Part shown: one piece after another, positions 21,901 to 52,300 of the stretch
Layout of the letters: each line of letters begins with the position of its first letter
Numbering within the stretch: the stretch's first letter is position 1
DNA from: Eledone cirrhosa
Lineage: Eukaryota
DNA length: 64,000 nucleotides
Reading direction: 5' to 3'
Assembly (NCBI GenBank): GCA_964016885.1
Contig: OZ024750.1
Span: 37,386,001-37,450,000 of the forward strand
Translations under genes and position numbers: made by a program
Notes under the pieces: model-generated
Seen by the model: the letters and a program-made list of their open reading frames with translations, nothing else
What the model was told of the DNA's origin: nothing
Databases searched by the model: none

Positions 21901-22599
21901 GAAATACTGTGTAAAATGATCAATTTGTGAAAAACCTAAAATAATCCATTTTTTTATACTTTTCGGTCTTTCACAAATTGATCATTTTACATAGTATTTG
22001 GAAAAAATATTTTTTTTCAAAAGAATGCGGTTATAAATTGTGTTTCGACACGTTGAAAAATACAAAATATATATCAAAAAGTATATATATCGAAATCAGA
22101 AAGTATATATTTCGAAAGAAATAAAATCAATCCTTTTTGAAATATAACAATTTTTCGAAATACTGTGTAAAATGATCAATTTGTGAAAAACCTAAAATAA
22201 TCAATTCGTTTATACTTTTCGAAATATTTACTTCTGATTTCTAAAATTGATTTTTTTAGGTTTTTCACAAATTGATCATTTTACACAGTATTTGGAAAAA
22301 ATATTTTTTTTCAAAGAATGCGTTTATAAATTGTGTTTCGACACGTTGAAAAATACAAAATATATATCAATTTTCGAAATCAGAAAGTATATATTTCGAA
22401 AGAAAAAAAATTAATCTTTTTTGAAAAAAAACAATTTTTCGAAATACTGTGTAAAATGATCAATTTGTGAAAAACCTAAAATAATCAATTTTTTTATACT
22501 TTTCGAAATATTTACTTCTGATTTCTAAAATTGATTTTTTTTAGGTTTTTCACAAATTGATCATTTTACACAGTATTTGGAAAAAATGCATTGTTTCGA

Positions 22600-25500
22600 C
22601 ACGTTGAAAAATTTTTTAAAAATACAAAATATATATCAATTTTCGAAATCAGAAACTATATTTCGAAAGAAAAAAAATCAATCTTTTTTGAAAAAAAACA
22701 ATTTTTCGAAATACTTTGTAAAATGATAGATTTGTGAAAAACCTAAAATAATCCATTTTTTTATACTTTTCGAAATATTTACTTCTGATTTCTAAAATTG
22801 ATTTTTTTAGGTTTTTCACAAATTGATCATTTTACACAGTATTTGGAAAAAATATTTTTTTTCAAAAGAATGCGGTTATAAATTGTGTTTCGACACGTTG
22901 AAAAATACAAAATATATATCAAAAAGTATATATATCGAAATCAGAAAGTATATATTTCGAAAGAAATAAAATCAATCCTTTTTGAAATATAACAATTTTT
23001 CGAAATACTGTGTAAAATGATCAATTTGTGAAAAACCTAAAATAATCAATTCGTTTATACTTTTCGAAATATTTACTTCTGATTTCTAAAATTGATTTTT
23101 TTAGGTTTTTCACAAATTGATCATTTTACACAGTATTTGGAAAAAATATTTTTTTTCAAAAAAATGTGTTTATACATTGTGTTTCGACACGTTGAAAAAC
23201 TTTTGAAAAATACAAAATATATATCAATTTTCGAAATCAGAAAGTATATTTCGAAAGAAAAAAAATCAATCTTTTTTGATAAAAAACAATTATTCGAAAT
23301 ACTTTGTAAAATGATAGATTTGTGAAAAACCTAAAATAATCCATTTTTTTATACTTTTCGAAATATTTACTTCTGATTTCTAAAATTGATTTTTTTAGGT
23401 TTTTCACAAATTGAACATTTTACACAGTATTTGGAAAAAATGCGTTATGTTTCGACACGTTGAAAAACTTTTGAAAAATTCAAAATATATATCAATTTTC
23501 GAAATCAGAAAGTATATATTTCGAAAGAAATAAAATCAATCTTTTTTGAAAAAAAACAATTTTTCGAAATACTGTGTAACATGATCATATTGTGAAAAAC
23601 CTAAATTAATAAATTTTTTTATAATTTTAGAAATATTTACTTCTGATTTCTAACATTGATTTTTTTAGGTTTTACACAGTATTTGGAAAAAATGCGTTTA
23701 TACATTATGTTTCGACACGTTGAAAAATTTTTTTAAAAATACAAAATATATATCAATTTTCGAAATCAGAAAGTATATATTTCGAAAGAAAAAAAATTAA
23801 TCTTTTTTGAAAAAAAACAATTTTTCGAAATACTGTGTAAAATGATCAATTTGTGAAAAACCTAAAATAATCAATTTTTTATACTTTTCGAAATATTTAC
23901 TTCTGATTTCTAAAATTGATTTTTTTAGGTTTTTCACAAATTGATCATTTTACACAGTATTTGGAAAAAATATTTTTTTTCAAAAAAATGCGTTTATAAA
24001 TTGTGTTTCGACACGTTGAAAAATACAATATATATATCAATTTTCGAAATCAGAAAGTATATATTTCGAAAGAAAAAAAATCAATCTTTTTTGAAATAAA
24101 ACAATTTTTCGAAATACTGTGTAAAATGATCAATTTGTGAAAAACCTAAAATAATCAATTTTTTAAAACTTTTCGAACTATTTACTTCGAATTTCTAAAA
24201 TTGATTTTTTTAGGTTTTACACAGTATTTAGAAAAAAGGCGTTTATACATTGTTTCGACACGTTGAAAAATTTTTTAAAAATACAAAATATATATCAATT
24301 TTCGAAATCTGAAAGTATATATTTCGAAAGAAAAAAAAACATCTTTTTTGAAAAAAAACAATTTTTCGAAATACTGTGTAAAATGATCAATTTGTGAAAA
24401 ACCTAAAATAATCAATTTTTTTATACCTTTCGAAATATTTACTTCTGATTTCTAAAATTGATTTTTTTTAGGTTTTTTACAAATTGATCATTTTACACAG
24501 TAGTGGGAAAAAATGCGTTTATACATTATGTTTCGACACGTTGAAAAATTTTTTAAAAATACAAAATATATATGAATCATTTTACACAGTATTTGGAAAA
24601 AATATTTTTTTTCAAAAAAATGTGTTTATACATTGTGTTTCGACACGTTGAAAAATATTTGAAAAATACAAAATATATATCAATTTTCGAAATTAGAAAG
24701 TATATATTTCGAAAGAAAAAAAATCAATCTTTTTTGAAAAAAAATTTTTCGAATTACTGTGTAAAATGATCAATTTGTGAAAAACCTAAATTAATAAATT
24801 TTTTTATAATTTTAGAAATATTTACTTCTGATTTCTAAAATTGATTTTTTTAGGTTTTTCACAAATTGATCATTTTACACAGTATTTGGAAAAAATATTT
24901 TTTTTCAAAAGAATGCGTTTATAAATTGTGTTTCGACACGTTGAAAAATACAAAATATATATCAATTTTCGAAATCAGAAAGTATATATTTCGAAAGAAA
25001 AAAAATTAATCTTTTTTGAAAAAAAACAATTTTTCGAAATACTGTGTAAAATGATCAATTTGTGAAAAACCTAAAATAATCCATTTTTTTATACTTTTCG
25101 AAATATTTACTTCTGATTTCTAAAATTGATTTTTTTAGGTTTTTCACAAATTGATCATTTTACACAGTATTTGGAAAAAATGCATTGTTTAGACACGTTG
25201 AAAAATTTTTTAAAAATACAAAATATATATCAATTTTCGAAATCAGAAACTATATTTCGAAAGAAAAAAAATCAATCTTTTTTGAAAAAAAACAATTTTT
25301 CGAAATACTTTGTAAAATGATCAATTTGTGAAAAACCTAAAATAATAAATTTTTTTATAATTTTCGAAATATTTACTTCTGATTTCTAAAATTGATTTTT
25401 TTAGGTTTTTCACAAATTGATCATTTTACACAGTATTTGGAAAAAATATTTTTTTTCAAAAGAATGCGGTTATAAATTGTGTTTCGACACGTTGAAAAAT

Positions 25501-28500
25501 ACAAAATATATATCAAAAAGTATATATATCGAAATCAGAAAGTATATATTTCGAAAGAAATAAAATCAATCCTTTTGGAAATATAACAATTTTTCGAAAT
25601 ACTGTGTAAAATGATCAATTTGTGAAAAACCTAAAATAATCAATTCGTTTATACTTTTCGAAATATTTACTTCTGATTTCTAAAATTGATTTTTTTAGGT
25701 TTTTCACAAATTGATCATTTTACACAGTATTTGGAAAAAATATTTTTTTTCAAAAAAATGTGTTTATACATTATGTTTCGACACGTTGAAAAACTTTTGA
25801 AAAATTCAAAATATATATCAATTTTCGAAATCAGAAAGTATATATTTCGAAAGAAATAAAATCAATCTTTTTTGAAAAAAAACAATTTTTCGAAATACTG
25901 TGTAAAATGATCAATTTGTGAAAAACCTAAAATAATCAATTTTTTATACTTTTCGAAATATTTACTTCTGATTTCTAAAATTGATTTTTTTAGGTTTTTC
26001 ACAAATTGATCATTTTACACAGTATTTGGAAAAAATGCATTGATTCGAAACGTTGAAAAATTTTTTAAAAATACAAAATATATATCAATTTTCGAAATCA
26101 GAAAGTATATATTTCGAAAGAAAAAAAATTATTTTTTTTTGAAAAAAAAACAATTTTTCGAAATACTGTGTAAAATGATCAATTTGTGAAAAACCTAAAA
26201 TAATCAATTTTTTTATACTTTTCGAAATATTTACTTCTGATTTCTAAAATTGATTTTTTTAGGTTTTTCACAAATTGATCATTTTACACAGTATTTGGAA
26301 AAAATGCATTGTTTCGACACGTTGAAAAATTTTTTAAAAATACAAAATATATATCAATTTTCGAAATCAGAAAGTATATTTCGAAAGAAAAAAAATCAAT
26401 CTTTTTTGAAAAAAAACAATTTTTCGAAATACTTTGTAAAATGAGAGATTTGTGATTAACCTAAAATAATCCATTTTTTAATACTTTTCGAAATATTTAC
26501 TTCTGATTTCTAAAATTGATTTTTTTAGGTTTTTCACAAATTGATCATTTTACACAGTATTTGGAAAAAATGCATTGTTTCGACACGTTGAAAAATTTTT
26601 TAAAAATACAAAATATATATCAATTTTCGAAATCAGAAAGTATATATTTCGAAAGAAAAAAAATTAATCTTTTTTTAAAAAAAACAATTTTTCGAAATAC
26701 TGTGTAAAATGATCAATTTGTGAAAAACCTAAAATAATCGATTTTTTTATACTTTTCGAAATATTTACTTCTGATTTCTAAAATTGATTTTTTTAGGTTT
26801 TTCACAAATTGATCATTTTACACAGTATTTGGAAAAAATATTTTTTTTCAAAAGAATGCGTTTATAAATTGTGTTTCGACACGTTGAAAAATACAAAATA
26901 TATATCAAAAAGTATATATATCGAAATCAGAAAGTATATATTTCGAAAGAAAAAAAATCAATCTTTTTTGAAAAGAAATTTTTCGAAATACTGTGTAAAA
27001 TGATCAATTTGTGAAAAACCTAAAATAATCAATTTTTTTATACTTTTCGAAATATTTACTTCTGATTTCTAAAATTGATTTTTTTAGGTTTTACACAAAT
27101 TGATCATTTTACACAGTATTTCGAAAAAATGCATTGTTTCGACACGTTGAAAAATACAAAATATATATCAATTTTCGAAATCAGAAAGTATATATTTCGA
27201 AAGAAAAAAAATTAATATTTTTTGAAAAAAAACAATTTTTCGAAATACTGTGTAAAATGATCAATTTGTGAAAAACCTAAAATAATCCATTTTTTTATAC
27301 TTTTCGAAATATTTACTTCTGATTTCTAAAATTGATTTTTTTAGGTCTTTCACAAATTGATCATTTTACACAGTATTTGGAAAAAATATTTTTTTTCAAA
27401 AGAATGCGGTTATAAATTGTGTTTCGACACGTTGAAAAATACAAAATATATATCAAAAAGTATATATATCGAAATCAGAAAGTATATATTTCGAAAGAAA
27501 AAAAATCAATCTTTTTTGAAAAGAAATTTTTCGAAATACTGTGTAAAATGAGCAATTTGTGAAAAACCTAAAATAATCAATTCGTTTATACTTTTCGAAA
27601 TATTTACTTCTGATTTCTAAAATTGATTTTTTTAGGTTTTTCACAAATTGCTCATTTTACACAGTATTTGGAAAAAATATTTTTTTTCAAAAAAATGTGT
27701 TTATACATTGTGTTTCGGCACGTTGAAAAACTTTTGAAAAATTCAAAATATATATCAATTTTCGAAATCAGAAAGTATATATTTCGAAAGAAAAAAAATT
27801 AATCTTTTTTGAAAAAAAACAATTTTTCGAAATACTGTGTAACATGATCAATTTGTGAAAAACCTAAAATAATCAATTTTTTTATACCTTTCGAAATATT
27901 TACTTCTGATTTCTAAAATTGATTTTTTTTAGGTTTTTCACAAATTGATCATTTTACACAGTATTTGGAAAAAATGCGTTATGTTTCGACACGTTGAAAA
28001 ACTTTTGAAAAATTCAAAATATATATCAATTTTCGAAATCAGAAAGTATATATTTCGAAAGAAAAAAAATCAATCTTTTTTGAAAAAAAACAATTTTTCG
28101 AAATACTGTGTAAAGTGATCAATTTGTGAAAAACCTAAAATAATCAATTTTTTTATACCTTTCGAAATATTTACTTCTGATTTCTAAAATTGATTTTTTT
28201 TAGGTTTTTCACAAATTGATCATTTTACACAGTATTTGGAAAAAATGCGTTATGTTTCGACACGTTGAAAAACTTTTGAAAAATTCAAAATATATATCAA
28301 TTTTCGAAATCAGAAAGTATATATTTCGAAAGAAAAAAAATCAATCTTTTTTGAAAAAAAACAATTTTTCGAAATACTGTGTAAAGTGATCAATTTGTGA
28401 AAAACCTAAAATAATCAATTTTTTTATACTTTTCGAAATATTTACTTCTGATTTCTAAAATTGATTTTTTTAGGTTTTTCACAAATTGATCATTTTACAC

Positions 28501-31500
28501 AGTATTTGGAAAAAATATTTTTTTTCAAAAAAATGTGTGTATACATTGTGTTTCGACACGTTGAAAAATATTTGAAAAATACAAAATATATATCAATTTT
28601 CGAAATTAGAAAGTATATATTTCGAAAGAAAAAAAATCAATCTTTTTTGAAAAAAAATTTTTCGAATTACTGTGTAAAATGATCAATTTGTGAAAAACCT
28701 AAATTAATAAATTTTTTTATAATTTTAGAAATATTTACTTCTGATTTCTAAAATTGATTTTTTTAGGTTTTTCACAAATTGATCATTTTACACAGTATTT
28801 GGAAAAAATGCATTGTTTCGACACGTTGAAAAATTTTTTAAAAATACAAAATATATATCAATTTTCGAAATCAGAAAGTATATATTTCGAAAGAAAAAAA
28901 ATTAATCTTTTTTGAAAAAAAACAATTTTTCGAAATACTGTGTAAAATGATCAATTTGTGAAAAACCTAAAATAATCAATTTTTTTATACTTTTCGAAAT
29001 ATTTACTTCTGATTTCTAAAATTGATTTTTTTTAGGTTTTTCACAAATTGATCATTTTACACAGTATTTGGAAAAAATATTTTTTTTCAAAAGAATGCGT
29101 TTATAAATTGTGTTTCGACACGTTGAAAAATACAAAATATATATCAATTTTCGAAATCAGAAAGTATATATTTCGAAAGAAAAAAAATTAATCTTTTTTG
29201 AAAAAAAACAATTTTTCGAAATACTGTGTAAAATGATCAATTTGTGAAAAACATAAAATAATCAATTTTTTTATACTTTTCGAAATATTTACTTCTGATT
29301 TCTAAAATTGATTTTTTTAGGTCTTTCACAAATTGATCATTTTACACAGTATTAGGAAAAAATATTTTTTTTCAAAAAAATGTGTTTATACATTGTGTTT
29401 CGACACGTTGAAAAATATTTGAAAAATACAAAATATATATCAATTTTCGCAATCAGAAAGTATATATTTCGAAAGAAAAAAAATCAATCTTTTTTGAAAA
29501 GAAATTTTTCGAAATACTGTGTAAAATGATCAATTTGTGAAAAACCTAAAATAATCAATTTTTTTATACTTTTCGAAATATTTACTTCTGATTTCTAAAA
29601 TTGATTTTTTTAGGTTTTACACAGTATTTGGAAAAAAGGCGTTTATACATTTAGTTTCGACACGTTGAAAAATACAAAATATATATCAATTTTCGAAATC
29701 AGAAAGTATATATTTCGAAAGAAAAAAAATTAATCTTTTTTGAAAAAAAACAATTTTTCGAAATACTGTGTAAAATGATCAATTTGTGAAAAACCTAAAA
29801 TAATCCATTTTTTTATACTTTTCGAAATATTTACTTCTGATTTCTAAAATTGATTTTTTTAGGTTTTTCACAAATTGATCATTTTACACAGTATTTGGAA
29901 AAAATGCATTGTTTAGACACGTTGAAAAATTTTTTAAAAATACAAAATATATATCAATTTTCGAAATCAGAAACTATATTTCGAAAGAAAAAAAATCAAT
30001 CTTTTTTGAAAAAAAACAATTTTTCGAAATACTTTGTAAAATGATAGATTTGTGAAAAACCTAAAATAATCCATTTTTTTATACTTTTCGAAATATTTAC
30101 TTCTGATTTCTAAAATTGATTTTTTTAGGTTTTTCACAAATTGATCATTTTACACAGTATTTGGAAAAAATATTTTTTTTCAAAAGAATGCGGTTATAAA
30201 TTGTGTTTCGACACGTTGAAAAATACAAAATATATATCAAAAAGTATATATATCGAAATCAGAAAGTATATATTTCGAAAGAAATAAAATCAATCCTTTT
30301 TGAAATATAACAATTTTTCGAAATACTGTGTAAAATGATCAATTTGTGAAAAACCTAAAATAATCAATTCGTTTATACTTTTCGAAATATTTACTTCTGA
30401 TTTCTAAAATTGATTTTTTTAGGTTTTTCACAAATTGATCATTTTACACAGTATTTGGAAAAAATATTTTTTTTCAAAAAAATGTGTTTATACATTGTGT
30501 TTCGACACGTTGAAAAACTTTTGAAAAATACAAAATATATATCAATTTTCGAAATCAGAAAGTATATTTCGAAAGAAAAAAAATCAATCTTTTTTGATAA
30601 AAAACAATTATTCGAAATACTTTGTAAAATGATAGATTTGTGAAAAACCTAAAATAATCCATTTTTTTATACTTTTCGAAATATTTACTTCTGATTTCTA
30701 AAATTGATTTTTTTAGGTTTTTCACAAATTGAACATTTTACACAGTATTTGGAAAAAATGCGTTATGTTTCGACACGTTGAAAAACTTTTGAAAAATTCA
30801 AAATATATATCAATTTTCGAAATCAGAAAGTATATATTTCGAAAGAAATAAAATCAATCTTTTTTGAAAAAAAACAATTTTTCGAAATACTGTGTAACAT
30901 GATCATATTGTGAAAAACCTAAATTAATAAATTTTTTTATAATTTTAGAAATATTTACTTCTGATTTCTAACATTGATTTTTTTAGGTTTTACACAGTAT
31001 TTGGAAAAAATGCGTTTATACATTATGTTTCGACACGTTGAAAAATTTTTTTAAAAATACAAAATATATATCAATTTTCGAAATCAGAAAGTATATATTT
31101 CGAAAGAAAAAAAATTAATCTTTTTTGAAAAAAAACAATTTTTCGAAATACTGTGTAAAATGATCAATTTGTGAAAAACCTAAAATAATCAATTTTTTAT
31201 ACTTTTCGAAATATTTACTTCTGATTTCTAAAATTGATTTTTTTAGGTTTTTCACAAATTGATCATTTTACACAGTATTTGGAAAAAATATTTTTTTTCA
31301 AAAAAATGCGTTTATAAATTGTGTTTCGACACGTTGAAAAATACAATATATATATCAATTTTCGAAATCAGAAAGTATATATTTCGAAAGAAAAAAAATC
31401 AATCTTTTTTGAAATAAAACAATTTTTCGAAATACTGTGTAAAATGATCAATTTGTGAAAAACCTAAAATAATCAATTTTTTAAAACTTTTCGAACTATT

Positions 31501-34500
31501 TACTTCGAATTTCTAAAATTGATTTTTTTAGGTTTTACACAGTATTTAGAAAAAAGGCGTTTATACATTGTTTCGACACGTTGAAAAATTTTTTAAAAAT
31601 ACAAAATATATATCAATTTTCGAAATCTGAAAGTATATATTTCGAAAGAAAAAAAAACATCTTTTTTGAAAAAAAACAATTTTTCGAAATACTGTGTAAA
31701 ATGATCAATTTGTGAAAAACCTAAAATAATCAATTTTTTTATACCTTTCGAAATATTTACTTCTGATTTCTAAAATTGATTTTTTTTAGGTTTTTTACAA
31801 ATTGATCATTTTACACAGTAGTGGGAAAAAATGCGTTTATACATTATGTTTCGACACGTTGAAAAATTTTTTAAAAATACAAAATATATATGAATCATTT
31901 TACACAGTATTTGGAAAAAATATTTTTTTTCAAAAAAATGTGTTTATACATTGTGTTTCGACACGTTGAAAAATATTTGAAAAATACAAAATATATATCA
32001 ATTTTCGAAATTAGAAAGTATATATTTCGAAAGAAAAAAAATCAATCTTTTTTGAAAAAAAATTTTTCGAATTACTGTGTAAAATGATCAATTTGTGAAA
32101 AACCTAAATTAATAAATTTTTTTATAATTTTAGAAATATTTACTTCTGATTTCTAAAATTGATTTTTTTAGGTTTTTCACAAATTGATCATTTTACACAG
32201 TATTTGGAAAAAATATTTTTTTTCAAAAGAATGCGTTTATAAATTGTGTTTCGACACGTTGAAAAATACAAAATATATATCAATTTTCGAAATCAGAAAG
32301 TATATATTTCGAAAGAAAAAAAATTAATCTTTTTTGAAAAAAAACAATTTTTCGAAATACTGTGTAAAATGATCAATTTGTGAAAAACCTAAAATAATCC
32401 ATTTTTTTATACTTTTCGAAATATTTACTTCTGATTTCTAAAATTGATTTTTTTAGGTTTTTCACAAATTGATCATTTTACACAGTATTTGGAAAAAATG
32501 CATTGTTTAGACACGTTGAAAAATTTTTTAAAAATACAAAATATATATCAATTTTCGAAATCAGAAACTATATTTCGAAAGAAAAAAAATCAATCTTTTT
32601 TGAAAAAAAACAATTTTTCGAAATACTTTGTAAAATGATCAATTTGTGAAAAACCTAAAATAATAAATTTTTTTATAATTTTCGAAATATTTACTTCTGA
32701 TTTCTAAAATTGATTTTTTTAGGTTTTTCACAAATTGATCATTTTACACAGTATTTGGAAAAAATATTTTTTTTCAAAAGAATGCGGTTATAAATTGTGT
32801 TTCGACACGTTGAAAAATACAAAATATATATCAAAAAGTATATATATCGAAATCAGAAAGTATATATTTCGAAAGAAATAAAATCAATCCTTTTGGAAAT
32901 ATAACAATTTTTCGAAATACTGTGTAAAATGATCAATTTGTGAAAAACCTAAAATAATCAATTCGTTTATACTTTTCGAAATATTTACTTCTGATTTCTA
33001 AAATTGATTTTTTTAGGTTTTTCACAAATTGATCATTTTACACAGTATTTGGAAAAAATATTTTTTTTCAAAAAAATGTGTTTATACATTATGTTTCGAC
33101 ACGTTGAAAAACTTTTGAAAAATTCAAAATATATATCAATTTTCGAAATCAGAAAGTATATATTTCGAAAGAAATAAAATCAATCTTTTTTGAAAAAAAA
33201 CAATTTTTCGAAATACTGTGTAAAATGATCAATTTGTGAAAAACCTAAAATAATCAATTTTTTATACTTTTCGAAATATTTACTTCTGATTTCTAAAATT
33301 GATTTTTTTAGGTTTTTCACAAATTGATCATTTTACACAGTATTTGGAAAAAATGCATTGATTCGAAACGTTGAAAAATTTTTTAAAAATACAAAATATA
33401 TATCAATTTTCGAAATCAGAAAGTATATATTTCGAAAGAAAAAAAATTATTTTTTTTTGAAAAAAAAACAATTTTTCGAAATACTGTGTAAAATGATCAA
33501 TTTGTGAAAAACCTAAAATAATCAATTTTTTTATACTTTTCGAAATATTTACTTCTGATTTCTAAAATTGATTTTTTTAGGTTTTTCACAAATTGATCAT
33601 TTTACACAGTATTTGGAAAAAATGCATTGTTTCGACACGTTGAAAAATTTTTTAAAAATACAAAATATATATCAATTTTCGAAATCAGAAAGTATATTTC
33701 GAAAGAAAAAAAATCAATCTTTTTTGAAAAAAAACAATTTTTCGAAATACTTTGTAAAATGAGAGATTTGTGATTAACCTAAAATAATCCATTTTTTAAT
33801 ACTTTTCGAAATATTTACTTCTGATTTCTAAAATTGATTTTTTTAGGTTTTTCACAAATTGATCATTTTACACAGTATTTGGAAAAAATGCATTGTTTCG
33901 ACACGTTGAAAAATTTTTTAAAAATACAAAATATATATCAATTTTCGAAATCAGAAAGTATATATTTCGAAAGAAAAAAAATTAATCTTTTTTTAAAAAA
34001 AACAATTTTTCGAAATACTGTGTAAAATGATCAATTTGTGAAAAACCTAAAATAATCGATTTTTTTATACTTTTCGAAATATTTACTTCTGATTTCTAAA
34101 ATTGATTTTTTTAGGTTTTTCACAAATTGATCATTTTACACAGTATTTGGAAAAAATATTTTTTTTCAAAAGAATGCGTTTATAAATTGTGTTTCGACAC
34201 GTTGAAAAATACAAAATATATATCAAAAAGTATATATATCGAAATCAGAAAGTATATATTTCGAAAGAAAAAAAATCAATCTTTTTTGAAAAGAAATTTT
34301 TCGAAATACTGTGTAAAATGATCAATTTGTGAAAAACCTAAAATAATCAATTTTTTTATACTTTTCGAAATATTTACTTCTGATTTCTAAAATTGATTTT
34401 TTTAGGTTTTACACAAATTGATCATTTTACACAGTATTTCGAAAAAATGCATTGTTTCGACACGTTGAAAAATACAAAATATATATCAATTTTCGAAATC

Positions 34501-37360
34501 AGAAAGTATATATTTCGAAAGAAAAAAAATTAATATTTTTTGAAAAAAAACAATTTTTCGAAATACTGTGTAAAATGATCAATTTGTGAAAAACCTAAAA
34601 TAATCCATTTTTTTATACTTTTCGAAATATTTACTTCTGATTTCTAAAATTGATTTTTTTAGGTCTTTCACAAATTGATCATTTTACACAGTATTTGGAA
34701 AAAATATTTTTTTTCAAAAGAATGCGGTTATAAATTGTGTTTCGACACGTTGAAAAATACAAAATATATATCAAAAAGTATATATATCGAAATCAGAAAG
34801 TATATATTTCGAAAGAAAAAAAATCAATCTTTTTTGAAAAGAAATTTTTCGAAATACTGTGTAAAATGAGCAATTTGTGAAAAACCTAAAATAATCAATT
34901 CGTTTATACTTTTCGAAATATTTACTTCTGATTTCTAAAATTGATTTTTTTAGGTTTTTCACAAATTGCTCATTTTACACAGTATTTGGAAAAAATATTT
35001 TTTTTCAAAAAAATGTGTTTATACATTGTGTTTCGGCACGTTGAAAAACTTTTGAAAAATTCAAAATATATATCAATTTTCGAAATCAGAAAGTATATAT
35101 TTCGAAAGAAAAAAAATTAATCTTTTTTGAAAAAAAACAATTTTTCGAAATACTGTGTAACATGATCAATTTGTGAAAAACCTAAAATAATCAATTTTTT
35201 TATACCTTTCGAAATATTTACTTCTGATTTCTAAAATTGATTTTTTTTAGGTTTTTCACAAATTGATCATTTTACACAGTATTTGGAAAAAATGCGTTAT
35301 GTTTCGACACGTTGAAAAACTTTTGAAAAATTCAAAATATATATCAATTTTCGAAATCAGAAAGTATATATTTCGAAAGAAAAAAAATCAATCTTTTTTG
35401 AAAAAAAACAATTTTTCGAAATACTGTGTAAAGTGATCAATTTGTGAAAAACCTAAAATAATCAATTTTTTTATACCTTTCGAAATATTTACTTCTGATT
35501 TCTAAAATTGATTTTTTTTAGGTTTTTCACAAATTGATCATTTTACACAGTATTTGGAAAAAATGCGTTATGTTTCGACACGTTGAAAAACTTTTGAAAA
35601 ATTCAAAATATATATCAATTTTCGAAATCAGAAAGTATATATTTCGAAAGAAAAAAAATCAATCTTTTTTGAAAAAAAACAATTTTTCGAAATACTGTGT
35701 AAAGTGATCAATTTGTGAAAAACCTAAAATAATCAATTTTTTTATACTTTTCGAAATATTTACTTCTGATTTCTAAAATTGATTTTTTTAGGTTTTTCAC
35801 AAATTGATCATTTTACACAGTATTTGGAAAAAATATTTTTTTTCAAAAAAATGTGTGTATACATTGTGTTTCGACACGTTGAAAAATATTTGAAAAATAC
35901 AAAATATATATCAATTTTCGAAATTAGAAAGTATATATTTCGAAAGAAAAAAAATCAATCTTTTTTGAAAAAAAATTTTTCGAATTACTGTGTAAAATGA
36001 TCAATTTGTGAAAAACCTAAATTAATAAATTTTTTTATAATTTTAGAAATATTTACTTCTGATTTCTAAAATTGATTTTTTTAGGTTTTTCACAAATTGA
36101 TCATTTTACACAGTATTTGGAAAAAATGCATTGTTTCGACACGTTGAAAAATTTTTTAAAAATACAAAATATATATCAATTTTCGAAATCAGAAAGTATA
36201 TATTTCGAAAGAAAAAAAATTAATCTTTTTTGAAAAAAAACAATTTTTCGAAATACTGTGTAAAATGATCAATTTGTGAAAAACCTAAAATAATCAATTT
36301 TTTTATACTTTTCGAAATATTTACTTCTGATTTCTAAAATTGATTTTTTTTAGGTTTTTCACAAATTGATCATTTTACACAGTATTTGGAAAAAATATTT
36401 TTTTTCAAAAGAATGCGTTTATAAATTGTGTTTCGACACGTTGAAAAATACAAAATATATATCAATTTTCGAAATCAGAAAGTATATATTTCGAAAGAAA
36501 AAAAATTAATCTTTTTTGAAAAAAAACAATTTTTCGAAATACTGTGTAAAATGATCAATTTGTGAAAAACATAAAATAATCAATTTTTTTATACTTTTCG
36601 AAATATTTACTTCTGATTTCTAAAATTGATTTTTTTAGGTCTTTCACAAATTGATCATTTTACACAGTATTAGGAAAAAATATTTTTTTTCAAAAAAATG
36701 TGTTTATACATTGTGTTTCGACACGTTGAAAAATATTTGAAAAATACAAAATATATATCAATTTTCGCAATCAGAAAGTATATATTTCGAAAGAAAAAAA
36801 ATCAATCTTTTTTGAAAAGAAATTTTTCGAAATACTGTGTAAAATGATCAATTTGTGAAAAACCTAAAATAATCAATTTTTTTATACTTTTCGAAATATT
36901 TACTTCTGATTTCTAAAATTGATTTTTTTAGGTTTTACACAGTATTTGGAAAAAAGGCGTTTATACATTTAGTTTCGACACGTTGAAAAATACAAAATAT
37001 ATATCAATTTTCGAAATCAGAAAGTATATATTTCGAAAGAAAAAAAATTAATCTTTTTTGAAAAAAAACAATTTTTCGAAATACTGTGTAAAATGATCAA
37101 TTTGTGAAAAACCTAAAATAATCCATTTTTTTATACTTTTCGAAATATTTACTTCTGATTTCTAAAATTGATTTTTTTAGGTTTTTCACAAATTGATCAT
37201 TTTACACAGTATTTGGAAAAAATGCATTGTTTAGACACGTTGAAAAATTTTTTAAAAATACAAAATATATATCAATTTTCGAAATCAGAAACTATATTTC
37301 GAAAGAAAAAAAATCAATCTTTTTTGAAAAAAAACAATTTTTCGAAATACTTTGTAAAAT
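22600..37360 (+). repeat. Higher-order tandem duplication, period 7318 bp (26 units including one composite monomer), 2 copies
   Basis: Constant offset 7318 for ORFs 23092/30410, 24572/31890, 25126/32444, 26250/33568, 26809/34127, 28461/35779, 29850/37168. Shared private variants: tagtgggaa, tgtgattaacc, aattgctcat, gtattaggaa. Confidence 0.93.
24471..24852 (+). repeat. Composite 382 bp monomer (truncated monomer fused to the next); 6 copies in the window
   Basis: Junction aaaatatatatgaatcattttacacag at ~24572, 31890, 40351, 58639, 60907 and 63191. Confidence 0.92.
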
Positions 37361-40300
37361 GATCAATTTGTGAAAAACCTAAAATAATAAATTTTTTTAT
37401 AATTTTCGAAATATTTACTTCTGATTTCTAAAATTGATTTTTTTAGGTTTTTCACAAATTGATCATTTTACACAGTATTTGGAAAAAATATTTTTTTTCA
37501 AAAGAATGCGGTTATAAATTGTGTTTCGACACGTTGAAAAATACAAAATATATATCAAAAAGTATATATATCGAAATCAGAAAGTATATATTTCGAAAGA
37601 AATAAAATCAATCCTTTTGGAAATATAACAATTTTTCGAAATACTGTGTAAAATGATCAATTTGTGAAAAACCTAAAATAATCAATTCGTTTATACTTTT
37701 CGAAATATTTACTTCTGATTTCTAAAATTGATTTTTTTAGGTTTTTCACAAATTGATCATTTTACACAGTATTTGGAAAAAATATTTTTTTTCAAAAAAA
37801 TGTGTTTATACATTATGTTTCGACACGTTGAAAAACTTTTGAAAAATTCAAAATATATATCAATTTTCGAAATCAGAAAGTATATATTTCGAAAGAAATA
37901 AAATCAATCTTTTTTGAAAAAAAACAATTTTTCGAAATACTGTGTAAAATGATCAATTTGTGAAAAACCTAAAATAATCAATTTTTTATACTTTTCGAAA
38001 TATTTACTTCTGATTTCTAAAATTGATTTTTTTAGGTTTTTCACAAATTGATCATTTTACACAGTATTTGGAAAAAATGCATTGATTCGAAACGTTGAAA
38101 AATTTTTTAAAAATACAAAATATATATCAATTTTCGAAATCAGAAAGTATATATTTCGAAAGAAAAAAAATTATTTTTTTTTGAAAAAAAAACAATTTTT
38201 CGAAATACTGTGTAAAATGATCAATTTGTGAAAAACCTAAAATAATCAATTTTTTTATACTTTTCGAAATATTTACTTCTGATTTCTAAAATTGATTTTT
38301 TTAGGTTTTTCACAAATTGATCATTTTACACAGTATTTGGAAAAAATATTTTTTTTCAAAAGAATGCGTTTATAAATTGTTTCGACACGTTGAAAAATAC
38401 AAAATATATATCAAAAAGTATATATATCGAAATCAGAAAGTATATATTTCGAAAGAAAAAAAATCAATCTTTTTTGAAAAGAAATTTTTCGAAATACTGT
38501 GTAAAATGATCAATTTGTGAAAAACCTAAAATAATCAATTTTTTTATACTTTTCGAAATATTTACTTCTGATTTCTAAAATTGATTTTTTTAGGTTTTAC
38601 ACAAATTGATCATTTTACACAGTATTTCGAAAAAATGCATTGTTTCGACACGTTGAAAAATACAAAATATATATCAATTTTCGAAATCAGAAAGTATATA
38701 TTTCGAAAGAAAAAAAATTAATATTTTTTGAAAAAAAACAATTTTTCGAAATACTGTGTAAAATGATCAATTTGTGAAAAACCTAAAATAATCCATTTTT
38801 TTATACTTTTCGAAATATTTACTTCTGATTTCTAAAATTGATTTTTTTAGGTCTTTCACAAATTGATCATTTTACACAGTATTTGGAAAAAATATTTTTT
38901 TTCAAAAGAATGCGGTTATAAATTGTGTTTCGACACGTTGAAAAATACAAAATATATATCAAAAAGTATATATATCGAAATCAGAAAGTATATATTTCGA
39001 AAGAAAAAAAATCAATCTTTTTTGAAAAGAAATTTTTCGAAATACTGTGTAAAATGAGCAATTTGTGAAAAACCTAAAATAATCAATTCGTTTATACTTT
39101 TCGAAATATTTACTTCTGATTTCTAAAATTGATTTTTTTAGGTTTTTCACAAATTGATCATTTTACACAGTATTTGGAAAAAATATTTTTTTTCAAAAAA
39201 ATGTGTTTATACATTGTGTTTCGGCACGTTGAAAAACTTTTGAAAAATTCAAAATATATATCAATTTTCGAAATCAGAAAGTATATATTTCGAAAGAAAA
39301 AAAATTAATCTTTTTTGAAAAAAAACAATTTTTCGAAATACTGTGTAACATGATCAATTTGTGAAAAACCTAAAATAATCAATTTTTTTATACCTTTCGA
39401 AATATTTACTTCTGATTTCTAAAATTGATTTTTTTTAGGTTTTTCACAAATTGATCATTTTACACAGTATTTGGAAAAAATGCGTTATGTTTCGACACGT
39501 TGAAAAACTTTTGAAAAATTCAAAATATATATCAATTTTCGAAATCAGAAAGTATATATTTCGAAAGAAAAAAAATCAATCTTTTTTGAAAAAAAACAAT
39601 TTTTCGAAATACTGTGTAAAGTGATCAATTTGTGAAAAACCTAAAATAATCAATTTTTTTATACTTTTCGAAATATTTACTTCTGATTTCTAAAATTGAT
39701 TTTTTTAGGTTTTTCACAAATTGATCATTTTACACAGTATTTGGAAAAAATATTTTTTTTCAAAAAAATGTGTTTATACATTGTGTTTCGACACGTTGAA
39801 AAATACAATATATATATCAATTTTCGAAATCAGAAAGTATATATTTCGAAAGAAAAAAAATCAATCTTTTTTGAAATAAAACAATTTTTCGAAATACTGT
39901 GTAAAATGATCAATTTGTGAAAAACCTAAAATAATTAATTTTTTTAAACTTTTCGAAATATTTACTTCGAATTTCTAAAATTGATTTTTTTAGGTTTTAC
40001 ACAGTATTTAGAAAAAAGGCGTTTATACATTGTTTCGACACGTTGAAAAATTTTTTAAAAATACAAAATATATATCAATTTTCGAAATCTGAAAGTATAT
40101 ATTTCGAAAGAAAAAAAAACATCTTTTTTGAAAAAAAACAATTTTTCGAAATACTGTGTAAAATGATCAATTTGTGAAAAACCTAAAATAATCAATTTTT
40201 TTATACCTTTCGAAATATTTACTTCTGATTTCTAAAATTGATTTTTTTTAGGTTTTTTACAAATTGATCATTTTACACAGTATTGGGAAAAAATGCGTTT

Positions 40301-43300
40301 ATACATTATGTTTCGACACGTTGAAAATTTTTTAAAAATACAAAATATATATGAATCATTTTACACAGTATTTGGAAAAAATATTTTTTTTCAAAAAAAT
40401 GTGTTTATACATTGTGTTTCGACACGTTGAAAAATATTTGAAAAATACAAAATATATATCAATTTTCGAAATTAGAAAGTATATATTTCGAAAGAAAAAA
40501 AATCAATCTTTTTTGAAAAAAAATTTTTCGAATTACTGTGTAAAATGATCAATTTGTGAAAAACCTAAATTAATAAATTTTTTTATAATTTTAGAAATAT
40601 TTACTTCTGATTTCTAACATTGATTTTTTTAGGTTTTACACAGTATTTGGAAAAAATGCGTTTATACATTATGTTTCGACACGTTGAAAAATTTTTTAAA
40701 AATACAAAATATATATCAATTTTCGAAATCAGAAAGTATATATTTCGAAATAAAAAAAATTAATCTTTTTTGAAATATAACAATTTTTCGAAATACTGTG
40801 TAAAATGATCAATTTGTGAAAAACCTAAAATAATCAATTTTTTATACTTTTCGAAATATTTACTTCTGATTTCTAAAATTGATTTTTTTAGGTTTTTCAC
40901 AAATTGATCATTTTACACAGTATTTGGAAAAAATGCATTGTTTCGACACGTTGAAAAATTTTTTAAAAATACAAAATATATATCAATTTTCGAAATCAGA
41001 AAGTATATATTTCGAAAGAAAAAAAATTAATCTTTTTTGAAAAAAAACAATTTTTCGAAATACTGTGTAAAATGATCAATTTGTGAAAAACATAAAATAA
41101 TCAATTTTTTTATACTTTTCGAAATATTTACTTCTGATTTCTAAAATTGATTTTTTTAGGTCTTTCACAAATTGATCATTTTACACAGTATTTGGAAAAA
41201 ATATTTTTTTTCAAAAAAATGTGTTTATACATTGTGTCTCGACACGTTGAAAAATATTTGAAAAATACAAAATATATATCAATTTTCGCAATCAGAAAGT
41301 ATATATTTCGAAAGAAAAAAAATCAATCTTTTTTGAAAAGAAATTTTTCGAAATACTGTGTAAAATGATCAATTTGTGAAAAATTTAAAATAATTAATTT
41401 TTTTATACTTTTCGAAATATTTACTTCTGATTTCTAAAATTGATTTTTTTAGGTTTTACACAAATTGATCATTTTACACAGTATTTAGAAAAAATGCATT
41501 GTTTCGACACGTTGAAAAATACAAAATATATATCAATTTTCGAAATCAGAAAGTATATATTTCGAAAGAAAAAAAATTAATCTTTTTTGAAAAAAAACAA
41601 TTTTTCGAAATACTGTGTAAAATGATCAATTTGTGAAAAACCTAAAATAATCCATTTTTTTATACTTTTCGAAATATTTACTTCTGATTTCTAAAATTGA
41701 TTTTTTTAGGTTTTTCACAAATTGATCATTTTACACAGTATTTGGAAAAAATGCATTGTTTCGACACGTTGAAAAATTTTTTAAAAATACAAAATATATA
41801 TCAATTTTCGAAATCAGAAAGTATATATTTCGAAAGAAAAAAAATTAATCTTTTTTGAAAAAAAACAATTTTTCGAAATACTGTGTAAAATGATCAATTT
41901 GTGAAAAACCTAAAATAATCAATTTTTTTATACTTTTCGAAATATTTACTTCTGATTTCTAAAATTGATTTTTTTAGGTTTTTCACAAATTGATCATTTT
42001 ACACAGTATTTGGAAAAAATGCATTGTTTCGACACGTTGAAAAATTTTTTAAAAATACAAAATATATATCAATTTTCGAAATCAGAAAGTATATTTCGAA
42101 AGAAAAAAAATCAATCTTTTTTGAAAAAAAACAATTTTTCGAAATACTTTGGAAAATGAGAGATTTGTGAAAAACCTAAAATAATCCATTTTTTTATACT
42201 TTTCGAAATATTTACTTCTGATTTCTAAAATTGATTTTTTTAGGTTTTTCACAAATTAATCATTTTACACAGTATTTGGAAAAAATGCATTGTTTCGACA
42301 CGTTGAAAAATTTTTTAAAAATACAAAATATATATCAATTTTCGAAATCAGAAAGTATATATTTCGAAAGAAAAAAAATTAATCTTTTTTGAAAAAAAAC
42401 AATTTTTCGAAATACTGTGTAAAATGATCAATTTGTGAAAAACCTAAAATAATCAATTTTTTTATACTTTTCGAAATATTTACTTCTGATTTCTAAAATT
42501 GATTTTTTTAGGTTTTTCACAAATTGATCATTTTACACAGTATTTGGAAAACATATTTTTTTTCAAAAGAATGCGTTTATAAATTGTGTTTCGACACGTT
42601 GAAAAATACAAAATATATATCAAAAAGTATATATATCGAAATCAGAAAGTATATATTTCGAAAGAAAAAAAATCAATCTTTTTTGAAAAGAAATTTTTCG
42701 AAATACTGTGTAAAATGATCAATTTGTGAAAAACCTAAAATAATCAATTTTTTTATACTTTTCGAAATATTTACTTCTGATTTCTAAAATTGATTTTTTT
42801 AGGTTTTACACAAATTGATCATTTTACACAGTATTTCGAAAAAATGCATTGTTTCGACACGTTGAAAAATACAAAATATATATCAATTTTCGAAATCAGA
42901 AAGTATATATTTCGAAAGAAAAAAAATTAATATTTTTTGAAAAAAAACAATTTTTCGAAATACTGTGTAAAATGATCAATTTGTGAAAAACCTAAAATAA
43001 TCCATTTTTTTATACTTTTCGAAATATTTACTTCTGATTTCTAAAATTGATTTTTTTAGGTCTTTCACAAATTGATCATTTTACACAGTATTTGGAAAAA
43101 ATATTTTTTTTCAAAAGAATGCGGTTATAAATTGTGTTTCGACACGTTGAAAAATACAAAATATATATCAAAAAGTATATATATCGAAATCAGAAAGTAT
43201 ATATTTCGAAAGAAAAAAAATCAATCTTTTTTGAAAAGAAATTTTTCGAAATACTGTGTAAAATGAGCAATTTGTGAAAAACCTAAAATAATCAATTCGT

Positions 43301-43339
43301 TTATACTTTTCGAAATATTTACTTCTGATTTCTAAAATT

Positions 43340-46300
43340 GATTTTTTTAGGTTTTTCACAAATTGAGCATTTTACACAGTATTTGGAAAAATTGTTTTTT
43401 TTCAAAAAAATGTGTTTATACATTGTGTTTCGACACGTTGAAAAATATTTGAAAAATACAAAATATATATCAATTTTCGAAATAAGAAAGTATATATTTC
43501 GAAAGAAAAAAAATCAATCTTTTTTGAAAAAAAACAATTTTTCGAAATACTGTGTAAAATGATCAATTTGTGAAAAACCTAAAATAATCAATTTTTTTAT
43601 ACTTTTCGAAATATTTACTTCTGATTTCTAAAATTGATTTTTTTAGGTTTTACACAGTATTTGGAAAAAAGGCGTTTATACATTGTTTCGACACGTTGAA
43701 AAATTTTTTAAAAATACAAAATATATATCAATTTTCGAAATCAGAAAGTATATATTTCGAAAGAAAAAAAATCAATCTTTTTTGAAAAAAAACAATTTTT
43801 CGAAATACTGTGTAAAATGATCAATTTGTGAAAAACCTAAAATAATCAATTTTTTTATACCTTTCGAAATATTTACTTCTGATTTCTAAAATTGATTTTT
43901 TTTAGGTTTTTCACAAATTGATCATTTTACACAGTATTTGGAAAAAATATTTTTTTTCAAAAAAATGTGTTTATACATTGTTTCGACACGTTGAAAAATA
44001 TTTGAAAAATACAAAATATATATCAATTTTCGAAATCAGAAAGTATATATTTCGAAAGAAAAAAAATCAATCTTTTTTGAAAAAAAATTTTTCGAATTAC
44101 TGTGTAAAATGATCAATTTGTGAAAAACCTAAAATAATCAATTTTTTTATACCTTTCGAAATATTTACTTCTGATTTCTAAAATTGATTTTTTTTAGGTT
44201 TTTCACAAATTGATCATTTTACACAGTATTTGGAAAAAATGCGTTATGTTTCGACACGTTGAAAAACTTTTGAAAAATTCAAAATATATATCAATTTTCG
44301 AAATCAGAAAGTATTTATTTCAAAAGAAATAATATCAATCTTTTTTGAAAAAAAACAATCTTTCGAAATACTGTGTAACATGATCAATTTGTGAAAAACC
44401 TAAATTAATAAATTTTTTTATAATTTTAGAAATATTTACTTCTGATTTCTAACATTGATTTTTTTAGGTTTTACACAGTATTTGGAAAAAATGCGTCTAT
44501 ACATTATGTTTCGACACGTTGAAAAATTTTTTAAAAATACAAAATATATATCAATTTTCGAAATCAGAAAGTATATATTTCGAAAGAAAAAAAATTAATC
44601 TTTTTTGAAAAAAAACAATTTTTCGAAATACTGTGTAAAATGATCAATTTGTGAAAAACCTAAAATAATCCATTTTTTTATACTTTTCGAAATATTTACT
44701 TCTGATTTCTAAAATTGATTTTTTTAGGTCTTTCACAAATTGATCATTTTACACAGTATTTGGAAAAAATGCAGTTTCGACACGTTGAAAAATTTTTTAA
44801 AAATACAAAATATATATCAATTTTCGAAATCAGAAAGTATATTTCGAATGAAAAAAAATCAATCTTTTTGAAAAAAAACAATTTTTCGAAATACTTTGTA
44901 AAATGATAGATTTGTGAAAAACCTAAAATAATCCATTTTTTTTATACTTTTCGAAATATTTACTTCTGATTTCTAAAATTGATTTTTTTAGGTTTTTCAC
45001 AAATTGATCATTTTACACAGTATTTGGAAAAAATATTTTTTTTCAAAAGAATGCGTTTATAAATTGTGTTTCTACACGTTGAAAAATACAAAATATATAT
45101 CAAAAAGTATATATATCGAAATCAGAAAGTATATATTTCGAAAGAAATAAAATCAATCCTTTTTGAAAAAAAACAATTTTTCGAAATACTGTGTAAAATG
45201 ATCAATTTGTGAAAAACATAAAATAATCAATTTTTTTATACTTTTCGAAATATTTACTTCTGATTTCTAAAATTGATTTTTTTAGGTTTTTCACAAATTG
45301 ATCATTTTACACAGTATTTGGAAAAAATGCGTTATGTTTCGACACGTTGAAAAACTTTTGAAAAATTCAAAATATATATCAATTTTCGAAATCAGAAAGT
45401 ATATATTTCGAAAGAAATAAAATCAATCTTTTTTGAAAAAAAACAATTTTTCGAAATACTGTGTAACATGATCAATTTGTGAAAAACCTAAAATAATAAA
45501 TTTTTTTATACTTTTAGAAATATTTATTTCTGATTTCTAACATTGATTTTTTTAGGTTTTACACAGTATTTGGAAAAAATGCGTTTATACATTATGTTTC
45601 GGCACGTTGAAAAATATTTGAAAAATACAAAATATATATCAATTTTCGAAATCAGAAAGTATATATTTCGAAAGAAAAAAAATCAATCTTTTTTGAAAAA
45701 AAAAAATTTTTCGAAATACTGTGTAAAATGATCAATTTGTGAAAAACCTAAAATAATCAATTTTTTTATACTTTTCGAAATATTTACTTCTGATTTCTAA
45801 AATTGATTTTTTTAGGTTTTTCACAAATTGATCATTTTACACTATTTGGAAAAAATATTTTTTTTCAAAAAAATGCGTTTATACATTGTGTTTCGACACG
45901 TTGAAAAATACAATATATATATCAATTTTCGAAATCAGAAAGTATATATTTCGAAAGAAAAAAAATCAATCTTTTTTGAAAAAAAACAATTTTTCGAAAT
46001 ACTGTGTAAAATGATCAATTGGTGAAAAACCTAAAATAATCAATTTTTTTATACTTTTCGAAATATTTACTTCTGATTTCTAAAATTGATTTTTTTAGGT
46101 TTTTCACAAATTGATAATTTTACACTATTTTAAAAAAATATTTTTTTTCAAAAAAATGCGTTTATACATTGTGTTTCGACACGTTGAAAAATACAATTTA
46201 TATATCAATTTTCGAAATCAGAAAGTATATATTTCGAAAGAAAAAAAATCAATCTTTTTTGAAAAAAAACAATTTTTCGAAATACTGTGTAAAATGATCA

Positions 46301-49300: not shown

Positions 49301-52300
49301 CTTTTTTGAAAAAAAACAATTATTCGAAATACTGTGTAAAATAATCAATTTGTGAAAAACCTAAAATAATCAATTCGTTTATACTTTTCGAAATACTTAC
49401 TTCTGATTTCTAAAATTGATTTTTTTAGGTTTTTCACAAATTGATCATTTTACACAGTATTTGGAAAAAATTTTTTTTTTCAAAAAAATGCGTTTATACA
49501 TTGTGCTTCGACACGTTGAAAAATATTAAATATATATCAATTTTCGAAATCAGAAAGTATGTATTTCGAAAGAAAAAAAATCAATCTTTTTTGAAAAAAA
49601 ACCATTTTTCGAAATACTGTGTAAAGTGATCAATTTGTGAAAAACCTAAAATAATCAATTTTTTTATACTTTTCGAAATATTTACTTCTGATTTCTAAAA
49701 TTGATTTTTTTAGGTTTTTCACAAATTGATCATTTTACACAGTATTTGGAAAAAATATTTTTTTTCAAAAAAATGTGTTTATACATTGTGTTTCGACACG
49801 TTGAAAAATATTTGAAAAATTAAAAATATATATCAATTTTCGAAATCAGAAAGTATATATTTCGAAAGAAAAAAATCAATCTCTTTTAAAAAAAAACAAT
49901 TTTTCGAAATACTGTGTAAAATGATCAATTTGTGAAAAACCTAAAATAATCAATTTTTTTATACTTTTCGAAATATTTACTTCTGATTTCTAAAATTGAT
50001 TTTTTTAGGTTTTTCACAAATTGATCATTTTACACTATTTGGAAAAAATATTTTTTTTCAAAAAAATGCGTTTATACATTGTGTTTCGACACGTTGAAAA
50101 ATACAATATATATATCAATTTTCGAAATCAGAAAGTATATATTTCGAAAGAAAAAAAATCAATCTTTTTTGAAAAAAAACAATTTTTCGAAATACTGTGT
50201 AAAATGATCAATTTGTGAAAAACCTAAAATAATCAATTTTTTTATACTTTTCGAAATATTTACTTCTGATTTCTAAAATTGATTTTTTTAGGTTTTTCAC
50301 AAATTGATAATTTTACACTATTTGGAAAAAATATTTTTTTTCAAAAAAATGCGTTTATACATTGTGTTTCGACACGTTGAAAAATACAATTTATATATCA
50401 ATTTTCGAAATCAGAAAGTATATATTTCGAAAGAAAAAAAATCAATCTTTTTTGAAAAAAAACAATTTTTCGAAATACTGTGTAAAATGATCAATTTGTG
50501 AAAAACCTAAAATAATCAATTTTTTTATACTTTTCGAAATATTTACTTCTGATTTCTAAAATTGATTTTTTTTAGGTTTTTCACAAACTGATCATTTTAC
50601 ACAGTATTTGGAAAAAAGGCGTTTATACATTGTTTCGACACGTTGAAAAATTTTTTAAAAATACAAAATATATATCAATTTTCGAAATCAGAAAGTATGT
50701 ATTTCGAAAAAAAAAAATCAATCTTTTTTGAAAAAAAACAATTTTTCGAAATACTGTAAAATGATCAATTTGTGAAAAACCTAAAATAATCAATTCGTTT
50801 ATACTTTTCGAAATATTTACTTCTGATTTCTAAAATTGATTTTTTTAGGTTTTTCACAGTATTTCGAAAAATTGTTTATTTTCAAAAAAATGCGTTCATA
50901 CATTGTTTCGACACGTTGAAAAATATTTGAAAAATTAAAAATATATATCAATTTTCGAAATCAGAAAGTATATATTTCGAAAGAAAAAAAATCAATCTTT
51001 TTTGAAAAAAAACAATTTTTCGAAATACTGTGTAAAATGATCAATTTGTGAAAAATCTAAAATAATCAATTTTTTTATAGTTTTCGAAATTTACTTTCTG
51101 ATTTCTAAAATTGATTTTTTTAGGTTTTTCACAAATTGATCATTTTACACAGTATTTCGAAAAATCGTTTTTTTTAAAAAAAAATGCGTTTATACATTGT
51201 GTTTCGACACGTTGAAAAATATTTGAAAAATACAAAATATATATCAATTTTCGAAATAAGAAAGTATATATTTCGAAAGAAAAAAAAATCAATCTTTTTT
51301 GAAAAAAAAACAATTATTCGAAATACTGTGTAAAATGATCAATTTGTGAAAAACCTAAAATAATCAATTCGTTTATACTTTTCGAAATATTTACTTCTGA
51401 TTTCTAAAATTGATTTTTTTAGGTTTTTCACAAATTGATCATTTTACACAGTATTTCGAAAAATTGTTTTTTTTCAAAAAAATGCGTTTGTACATTGTGT
51501 TTCGACACGTTGAAAAATATTTTAAAAATACAAAATATATATCAATTTTCGAAATCAGAAAGTATATATTTTGAAAGACATATAATCAATCTTTTTTGAA
51601 AAAAAACAATTTTTCGAAATACTGTGTAACATGATCAATTTGTGAAAAACCTAAAATAATCAATTTTTTTATACTTTTCGAAATATTTACTTCTGATTTC
51701 TAAAATTGATTTTTTTAGGTTTTTCACAAATTGATCATTTTACACAGTATTTCGAAAAATTGTTTTTTTTCAAAAAATTGCGTTTGTACATTGTGTTTCG
51801 ACACGTTGAAAAATATTTGAAAAATTAAAAATATATATCAATTTTCGAAATCAGAAAGTATATATTTCGAAAGAAAAAAAAACAATTATACGAAATACTG
51901 TGTAAAATGATCAATCTGTGAAAAACCTAAAATAATCAATTTTTTTATACTTTTCGAAATATTTACTTCGTATTTCTAAAATTGATTTTTTTAGGTTTTA
52001 CACAGTATTTGGAAAAATATACATTGTTTCGACACGTTGAAAAATTTTTTAAAAATACAAAATATATATCAATTTTCGAAATCAGAAAGTATATATTTCG
52101 AAAGAAAAAAAATCAATCTTTTTTGAAAAAAAACAATTATTCGAAATACTGTGTAAAATGATCAATTTGTGAAAAACCTAAAATAATCAATTTTTTTATA
52201 CTTTTCGAAATATTTACTTTGGATTTCTAAAATTGATTTTTTTTAGGTTTTACACAGTATTTGGAAAAAAGGCGTTTATACATTGTTTCGACACGTTGAA

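Follow-up and report, generated by a model that had tools for sequence, protein, structure and literature searches.

Positions 27552 and 27651 of the 64,000-nt window (the whole stretch of DNA analysed here, C10:37,386,001-37,450,000 of the 3.0-Gb Eledone cirrhosa assembly; window coordinates refer to the plus strand) carry complementary variants in opposite arms of an inverted repeat, and the question raised by this locus is whether one arm was copied onto the other or whether two mutations arose separately. Arm A has a T>G variant at 27552 and arm B an A>C variant at 27651, its mirror; the two sites are exactly paired in the inverted repeat and their 14-mers are exact reverse complements, as a sequence-only reading of the window had noted, together with G34870 and C34969. 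Sister copies identify A as the earlier state at 27651, and the derived C complements the G with which it pairs. The G variant is the older of the two and is present in seven copies of the cassette (3834, 9113, 18085, 27552, 34870, 39058, and 43267), two of which have the younger C partner. The same reading had described sister G copies with an unmodified partner, and five copies do keep A, but its listing missed the seventh G copy at 43267. It had also described the pair as duplicated at 34870-34969; the bases are present there, but they represent the same single event, because 22598-30045 is identical to 29916-37363 over 7,448 bp at an offset of 7,318 bp, and both copies of the pair lie within this perfect tandem duplication (22598-37363, period 7,318 bp). 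C27651 is the sole difference between its lineage and a sister over 611 bp. A genome-wide search with the corresponding 24-mer gave 11 exact matches, nine in the window and two that are arm A variants on another contig.

Two further sites belong with this pair. A second mirror pair, G482/C555 (482-555), is accompanied by A485, which lies 3 nt from G482 and is unmirrored. The sister cassette at 43267-43367 combines G43267 with a private T>G change at 43367, which adjoins the paired site and repeats the arm A core in direct orientation. Just downstream of 43367, this cassette (43267-43394) changes to another monomer lineage.

The satellite monomer and its stem

The window is head-to-tail satellite throughout (1-64000, part of a ~230-kb array), with AT-rich monomers of ~250-296 bp and 20% G+C; short units of ~107 bp and ~182 bp are also present. 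The arms had earlier been placed on either side of a monomer junction, a description that depends on the phase chosen; when the array is anchored on the spacer motif (at 27423 and 27714), both arms fall within a single 291-bp monomer (27423-27713) that contains internal inverted repeats. Arm A (27534-27584, stem positions 0-50) and arm B (27619-27669, stem positions 85-135) flank a loop that measured 34 nt (27585-27618), against the ~35 nt first estimated, and the stem continues imperfectly outwards to about 27512 on one side and about 27694 on the other. The outer 40 pairs of the consensus stem are perfect, the next is a T.T mismatch, and an imperfect stem then extends outwards. At the pair, the arms are 64 nt long and 92% complementary, indicating a pre-existing imperfect inverted repeat. 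The predicted fold of the strand has an energy of -62.8 kcal/mol, compared with -18.0 for shuffles (z -15.6); this modelled value is a hairpin potential and does not in itself show formation. A second, weaker inverted repeat at 27448-27633, which joins the loop region to spacer sequence lying upstream of arm A, provides for competing alternative folds.

The mismatches around the pair (T27574/T27629, 27583-4/27619-20, and G27533/G27670) are unrepaired, and the loop of monomer 27423-27713 is not inverted; we thus found at G27552/C27651 neither several changes derived from one copied tract nor a spacer inversion. Since the flanking mismatches are untouched, any copied tract would hold one informative base, and a one-base tract is indistinguishable from a point mutation.

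Mirrored variants across three arrays

Long head-to-tail arrays of this one monomer family lie on three contigs, at about 37.316-37.55 Mb of C10 (which includes the window), 29.862-30.167 Mb of C7, and 50.303-50.548 Mb of C6. They are about 230, 305, and 245 kb long, orientation is constant within each, and at ~0.8 Mb in total they do not dominate the satellite content of the assembly. The arm 28-mer has 2,882 exact matches genome-wide; the 1 Mb of sequence examined around the three arrays covers 2,634 of these (91%), and the remaining 248 (9%) lie outside the stretches taken. In the C6 array there are also short units of ~132 bp (for example 50467938-50468070), in which the arm B core directly abuts inner arm A. 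Diverged patchwork repeats of the same short motifs adjoin two of the arrays (C10:37575000-37587000 and C6:50290000-50302600) and are possibly older relatives of the monomer. Rfam had no match for window positions 27000-28300.

Of the 2,794 hairpin units that we aligned, 2,697 were retained (759 from C10, 1,101 from C7, and 837 from C6); the 97 that were dropped (16, 0, and 81, respectively) exceeded 12 substitutions or 4 inserted bases, and 27 units beyond 37.55 Mb, from a diverged neighbouring repeat, had been excluded beforehand. A first tally of C10, with nine mirror types in the stem, was rejected when seven proved to come from the badly aligning diverged repeat at C10:37.575-37.586 Mb. 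An unfiltered recount of 2,588 units, in which C7 was incomplete, returned the same two mirror events as the filtered set.

The 304 types of arm substitution in the 2,697 units include two mirror events, G27552/C27651 and G482/C555. When arm B positions were relabelled within each base class, with haplotypes left intact, 4.46 mirror events were expected (P = 0.96 for two or more). This null may run high, as outside the window it predicts 4.3 events where none was observed in 2,469 units (P = 0.005), and for this reason we also give a conservative analytic count, which expects 2.15, and the counts in 24 slid registers, which average 2.33 and reach two or more in 15 cases. The earlier reading held that reverse-complement variants would be enriched in adjacent arms, and this expectation, for which the test had been set in advance, was not borne out: stem-perfecting changes do not exceed the rate of independent mutation (2 against 2.15-4.46, or 2.33 in slid registers). 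The mirror pair thus stands at the level expected by chance across the arrays.

The same picture was obtained when the variants were divided in other ways. Among rare variant types, two of 172 are mirrored, compared with 1.0 expected, and 5 double changes at paired sites are non-complementary, where 5.8 would be expected. None of the 46 common one-arm variants, each carried by 30-429 units, is mirrored within its own unit. In none of the 2,697 forward units is the fixed T40.T95 mismatch repaired on the arm B side, and stem-perfecting bases are not enriched at six sites of fixed mismatch (7/18 versus 11/36, P = 0.56). The sites in question also mutate alone, with T18G found on four backgrounds and A117G in four units. 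T>G changes occurred at 5 of 12 site/array pairs in the TGATCA core, versus 44 of 234 at other A/T sites (Fisher P = 0.07). For mutagenesis targeted to the mismatch beside a paired variant, offsets of -1 and +1 gave 11 and 13 pairs, the mean being 8.2 and the range 4-13. Two routes of copying were tried and rejected. Conversion in trans from the arms of other units would predict 20.4, 20.6, and 15.0 shared variant types, and 18, 17, and 14 were found, with no excess; direct-register copying between the two TGATCA cores accounts for one case where 0.69 was expected.

Taken alone, the window gives a different impression, as it has two mirror events in 228 units against a null mean of 0.26 (P = 0.022, to be read with the fact that the window was chosen for the pair G27552/C27651). 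The probability that some block of this size contains at least two mirror events is 0.68. A simple Poisson model gives any one mirror pair a probability of templated origin between 0.11 and 0.59, depending on the null and the prior, and between 0.27 and 0.59 when only the C10 array is counted.

Inverted tracts elsewhere in the satellite

In the assembly, 783 kb were scanned for locally inverted k-mers, which fell into 92 clusters; the seven with at least 13 hits comprise two single-base variants and five inverted tracts of 28-131 bp. All five tracts are outside the window, and the array orientation resumes after each one. The first is a 68-bp extension of arm B at C10:37,531,668-735 (L042:1668-1735), an exact reverse complement of the upstream flank of its own unit. 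Its donor (L042:1442-1509; C10 span with the tract 37531442-37531735) ends 158 bp upstream of the tract, is the sole perfect match in the 783 kb of the three arrays, has a private haplotype, and stands in a symmetric hairpin register with the copy; the spacer was lost, and the window has, near 52,539 (~52,300-52,650), a sister that represents the earlier state. We infer from this geometry that the 68-bp extension is the best evidence of arm-to-arm template switching in cis. The second tract is a perfect inverted duplication of 124 bp with a 4-nt inverted spacer (C10:37,364,399-650; L005:8399-8650), which copies arm B, the loop, and inner arm A together with the variants of the unit and returns through arm homology; its two-variant haplotype is shared by 15 of 759 units, the neighbour among them. 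In the third, at C6:~50405320-50405445 (L031, ~50,405,443), arms A and B enclose an inverted loop, which follows a short insertion that is built of loop pieces in both orientations and looks templated. The fourth (C7:30162453-30162491, L086) and fifth (C6:50357068-50357095, L026) are fold-backs of 39 and 28 bp, respectively, each of which makes a new perfect hairpin. A palindrome scan of C7 returned a run of N and nothing else.

Each tract matches a nearby donor in reverse complement; for the last three, the donors are adjacent by inspection and are not unique. Judged by their geometry, the five tracts would be products of replication template switches. Such switching is a known mechanism that needs no hairpin in vivo, and the inverted spacers of the second and third tracts point to inter-strand switching, for which no hairpin is required; the 68-bp extension fits either a fold-back or an inter-strand route. 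It had been argued that templating of G27552/C27651 would imply a hairpin in vivo, which does not follow, as the same product can be obtained by inter-strand switching as described in the human study discussed below (PMC5453318).

A subfamily of C10 units (window positions 50859, 51451, 51747, 53111, 53662, and 55812, and 28 more units) has an outer arm B that agrees with the consensus outer arm A at two or three sites where the arms are elsewhere mismatched. These units are rare in or absent from the C6 and C7 arrays; their private arm A variants were not copied, and the subfamily may go back to an old conversion or may have kept an ancestral state.

Origin of the mirrored pair

We consider that G27552/C27651 probably arose by two independent point mutations, with no copying between the arms. 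A T>G mutation in arm A would have come first and spread with the cassette to seven copies, an A>C mutation would then have occurred in arm B of one cassette copy, and the 7,318-bp tandem duplication would have doubled the copy that carried the pair. With about 300 types of arm substitution, and with each unit carrying one to three variants, chance should produce two to four such pairs in these arrays, and two were seen. Apart from the pair, rare replication template switches are likely on this satellite, and their recognisable products would be the inverted tracts of tens of bases in other units. The double coincidence of C27651 and the change at the adjacent base in a sister (43367) is unexplained except by chance or by a mild preference for T>G at the core.

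A considerably less likely origin, though one to which we give some weight, is a short template switch within the 40-bp perfect stem that transferred G27552 to arm B as C27651, through either fold-back of the nascent strand or an inter-strand switch; it would have entered and exited between positions 96 and 135 and copied no other marker. The register and complementarity of the pair are exact, the predicted fold gives the strand the potential for such a hairpin, and the window-only and C10-only estimates lean the same way, as does the private change at 43367, which likewise repeats the arm A core. In addition, the C10 array, in which both mirror events occur, also has the 68-bp arm extension and the 124-bp fold-back, so that real template switches using the same arms exist there. 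Against these points, there is no overall excess over chance and nothing outside the window, the tract would be one base with the neighbouring mismatches not co-converted, the T40.T95 mismatch is unrepaired on the arm B side, and stem-perfecting bases are not enriched at the six fixed sites. Moreover, single compensatory changes in rRNA hairpins were not enriched over simulation while multiple ones were, according to the report on template-switch compensatory mutations (PMC8794818). The general claim first made with the pair, that mirror variants are enriched in adjacent arms, is refuted by the counts across the arrays, yet the mechanism has left footprints at other sites of the satellite, and it is for this reason that a templated origin of G27552/C27651 retains the weight we give it.

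The broader proposal that frequent fold-back at replication copies single variants from arm to arm, so that both mirror pairs and 43367 were templated in a manner akin to the 68-bp extension, appears rather improbable to us. If it were true, the arrays would be a natural record of accumulated mutations, from which fold-back switching across the 34-nt loop could be counted against point mutation, at about five visible switches for every 300 substitution types; switching would also build and lengthen satellite dyad symmetry without selection.

We regard it as very unlikely that C27651 and C34969 reflect a consensus or polishing error, with arm A reads placed in reverse on arm B, or that the assembly process created the second copy. 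In favour of an error, the two copies of the duplicated stretch agree at 100% over 7,448 bp, and C27651 was found in none of 398 public short reads over the site in two other samples (X5 and X6), which is expected for a private variant; these reads come from other individuals with all copies pooled, so that a variant present in 2 of 2,800 units should appear in far fewer than one read. The five other G-variant copies, equally exposed to such an error, keep A, and the error would have to be in both copies or to precede a false duplication. The public runs used in the read check (four on 27440-27760 and four on L042:1400-1800) were all from individuals other than the assembled one, and the best run shares 0.38 of words. 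The private stretch of the 68-bp extension had no depth in any of the four runs, again as expected for a private variant, and opposite-strand joints in the read tables were left out since they are expected from the built-in inverted repeats. Selection for a paired stem, which the length and stability of the predicted hairpin might seem to favour, is scarcely credible, as it is contradicted by uncompensated arm substitutions in 2,291 of 2,697 units (85%) and by the absence of ~18 bp of arm B from about one in six C10 units.

The preferred reading of independent mutation can be set beside the systems in which such changes have been described. In yeast, quasi-palindrome correction of the Ripley type homogenises arms and inverts spacers by template switching, and the published cases reported there have arms of 9-16 bp and spacers of 2-5 nt (PMC8604942). 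The satellite resembles these cases in its pre-existing imperfect inverted repeat, in a derived base that restores pairing at 27552/27651, and, outside the window, in arm extension and spacer inversion (PMC8604942). It differs in that its arms (50-80 bp) and spacer (34 nt) are both longer, and in that the change at 27552/27651 is one base with no excess, in contrast to the multi-nucleotide changes or spacer inversions described (PMC8604942). G27552/C27651 thus acts as a compensatory change, but it shows neither the multi-base tract nor the excess over chance by which quasi-palindrome correction is recognised.

The five tracts fit the four-point model of short template switches, for which a human study favours inter-strand switches without need of a hairpin (PMC5453318); they are local reverse-complement copies with a return, and they include stem extension, loop inversion, and new hairpins, as in that model. 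The absence of enrichment among single compensatory changes in the satellite arms agrees with the rRNA hairpins (PMC8794818). Unlike the material of these two studies, as described there, the record here is a tandem array, in which sister copies show the state before each event (PMC5453318, PMC8794818).

Satellites with dyad symmetry have been described in Tribolium madens (TmSat2), T. brevicornis (1061 bp), and Trichogramma brassicae (385 bp), and such symmetry is often taken as a sign of function (PMC13081366). The monomers analysed here share with them a long imperfect inverted repeat in each tandem unit and a predicted hairpin or cruciform potential, a likeness of structure as described (PMC13081366). 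With respect to the same description, they differ in having ~290-bp monomers with nested inverted repeats, in keeping one monomer orientation per array (no macro-dyads), and in amounting to ~0.8 Mb in three arrays rather than dominating the assembly (PMC13081366).

The pair itself carries little weight, being of the kind that chance yields in a large array. Mismatches, however, are tolerated in the arms of 85% of units, base-by-base homogenisation is absent, and rare inverted template switches would lengthen a stem or make a new hairpin in a single step; together these features support a mutational origin of satellite palindromes. The arrays also yield a rough ratio of switches to substitutions that is testable in other long-read assemblies. 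Literature searches that covered few subscription journals found neither an account of this satellite nor template-switch counts in satellite arrays. In public contigs (runs X3 and X4), the summed word depth of the satellite reached up to about 200,000, so that other individuals, or a close relative, have it in abundance.
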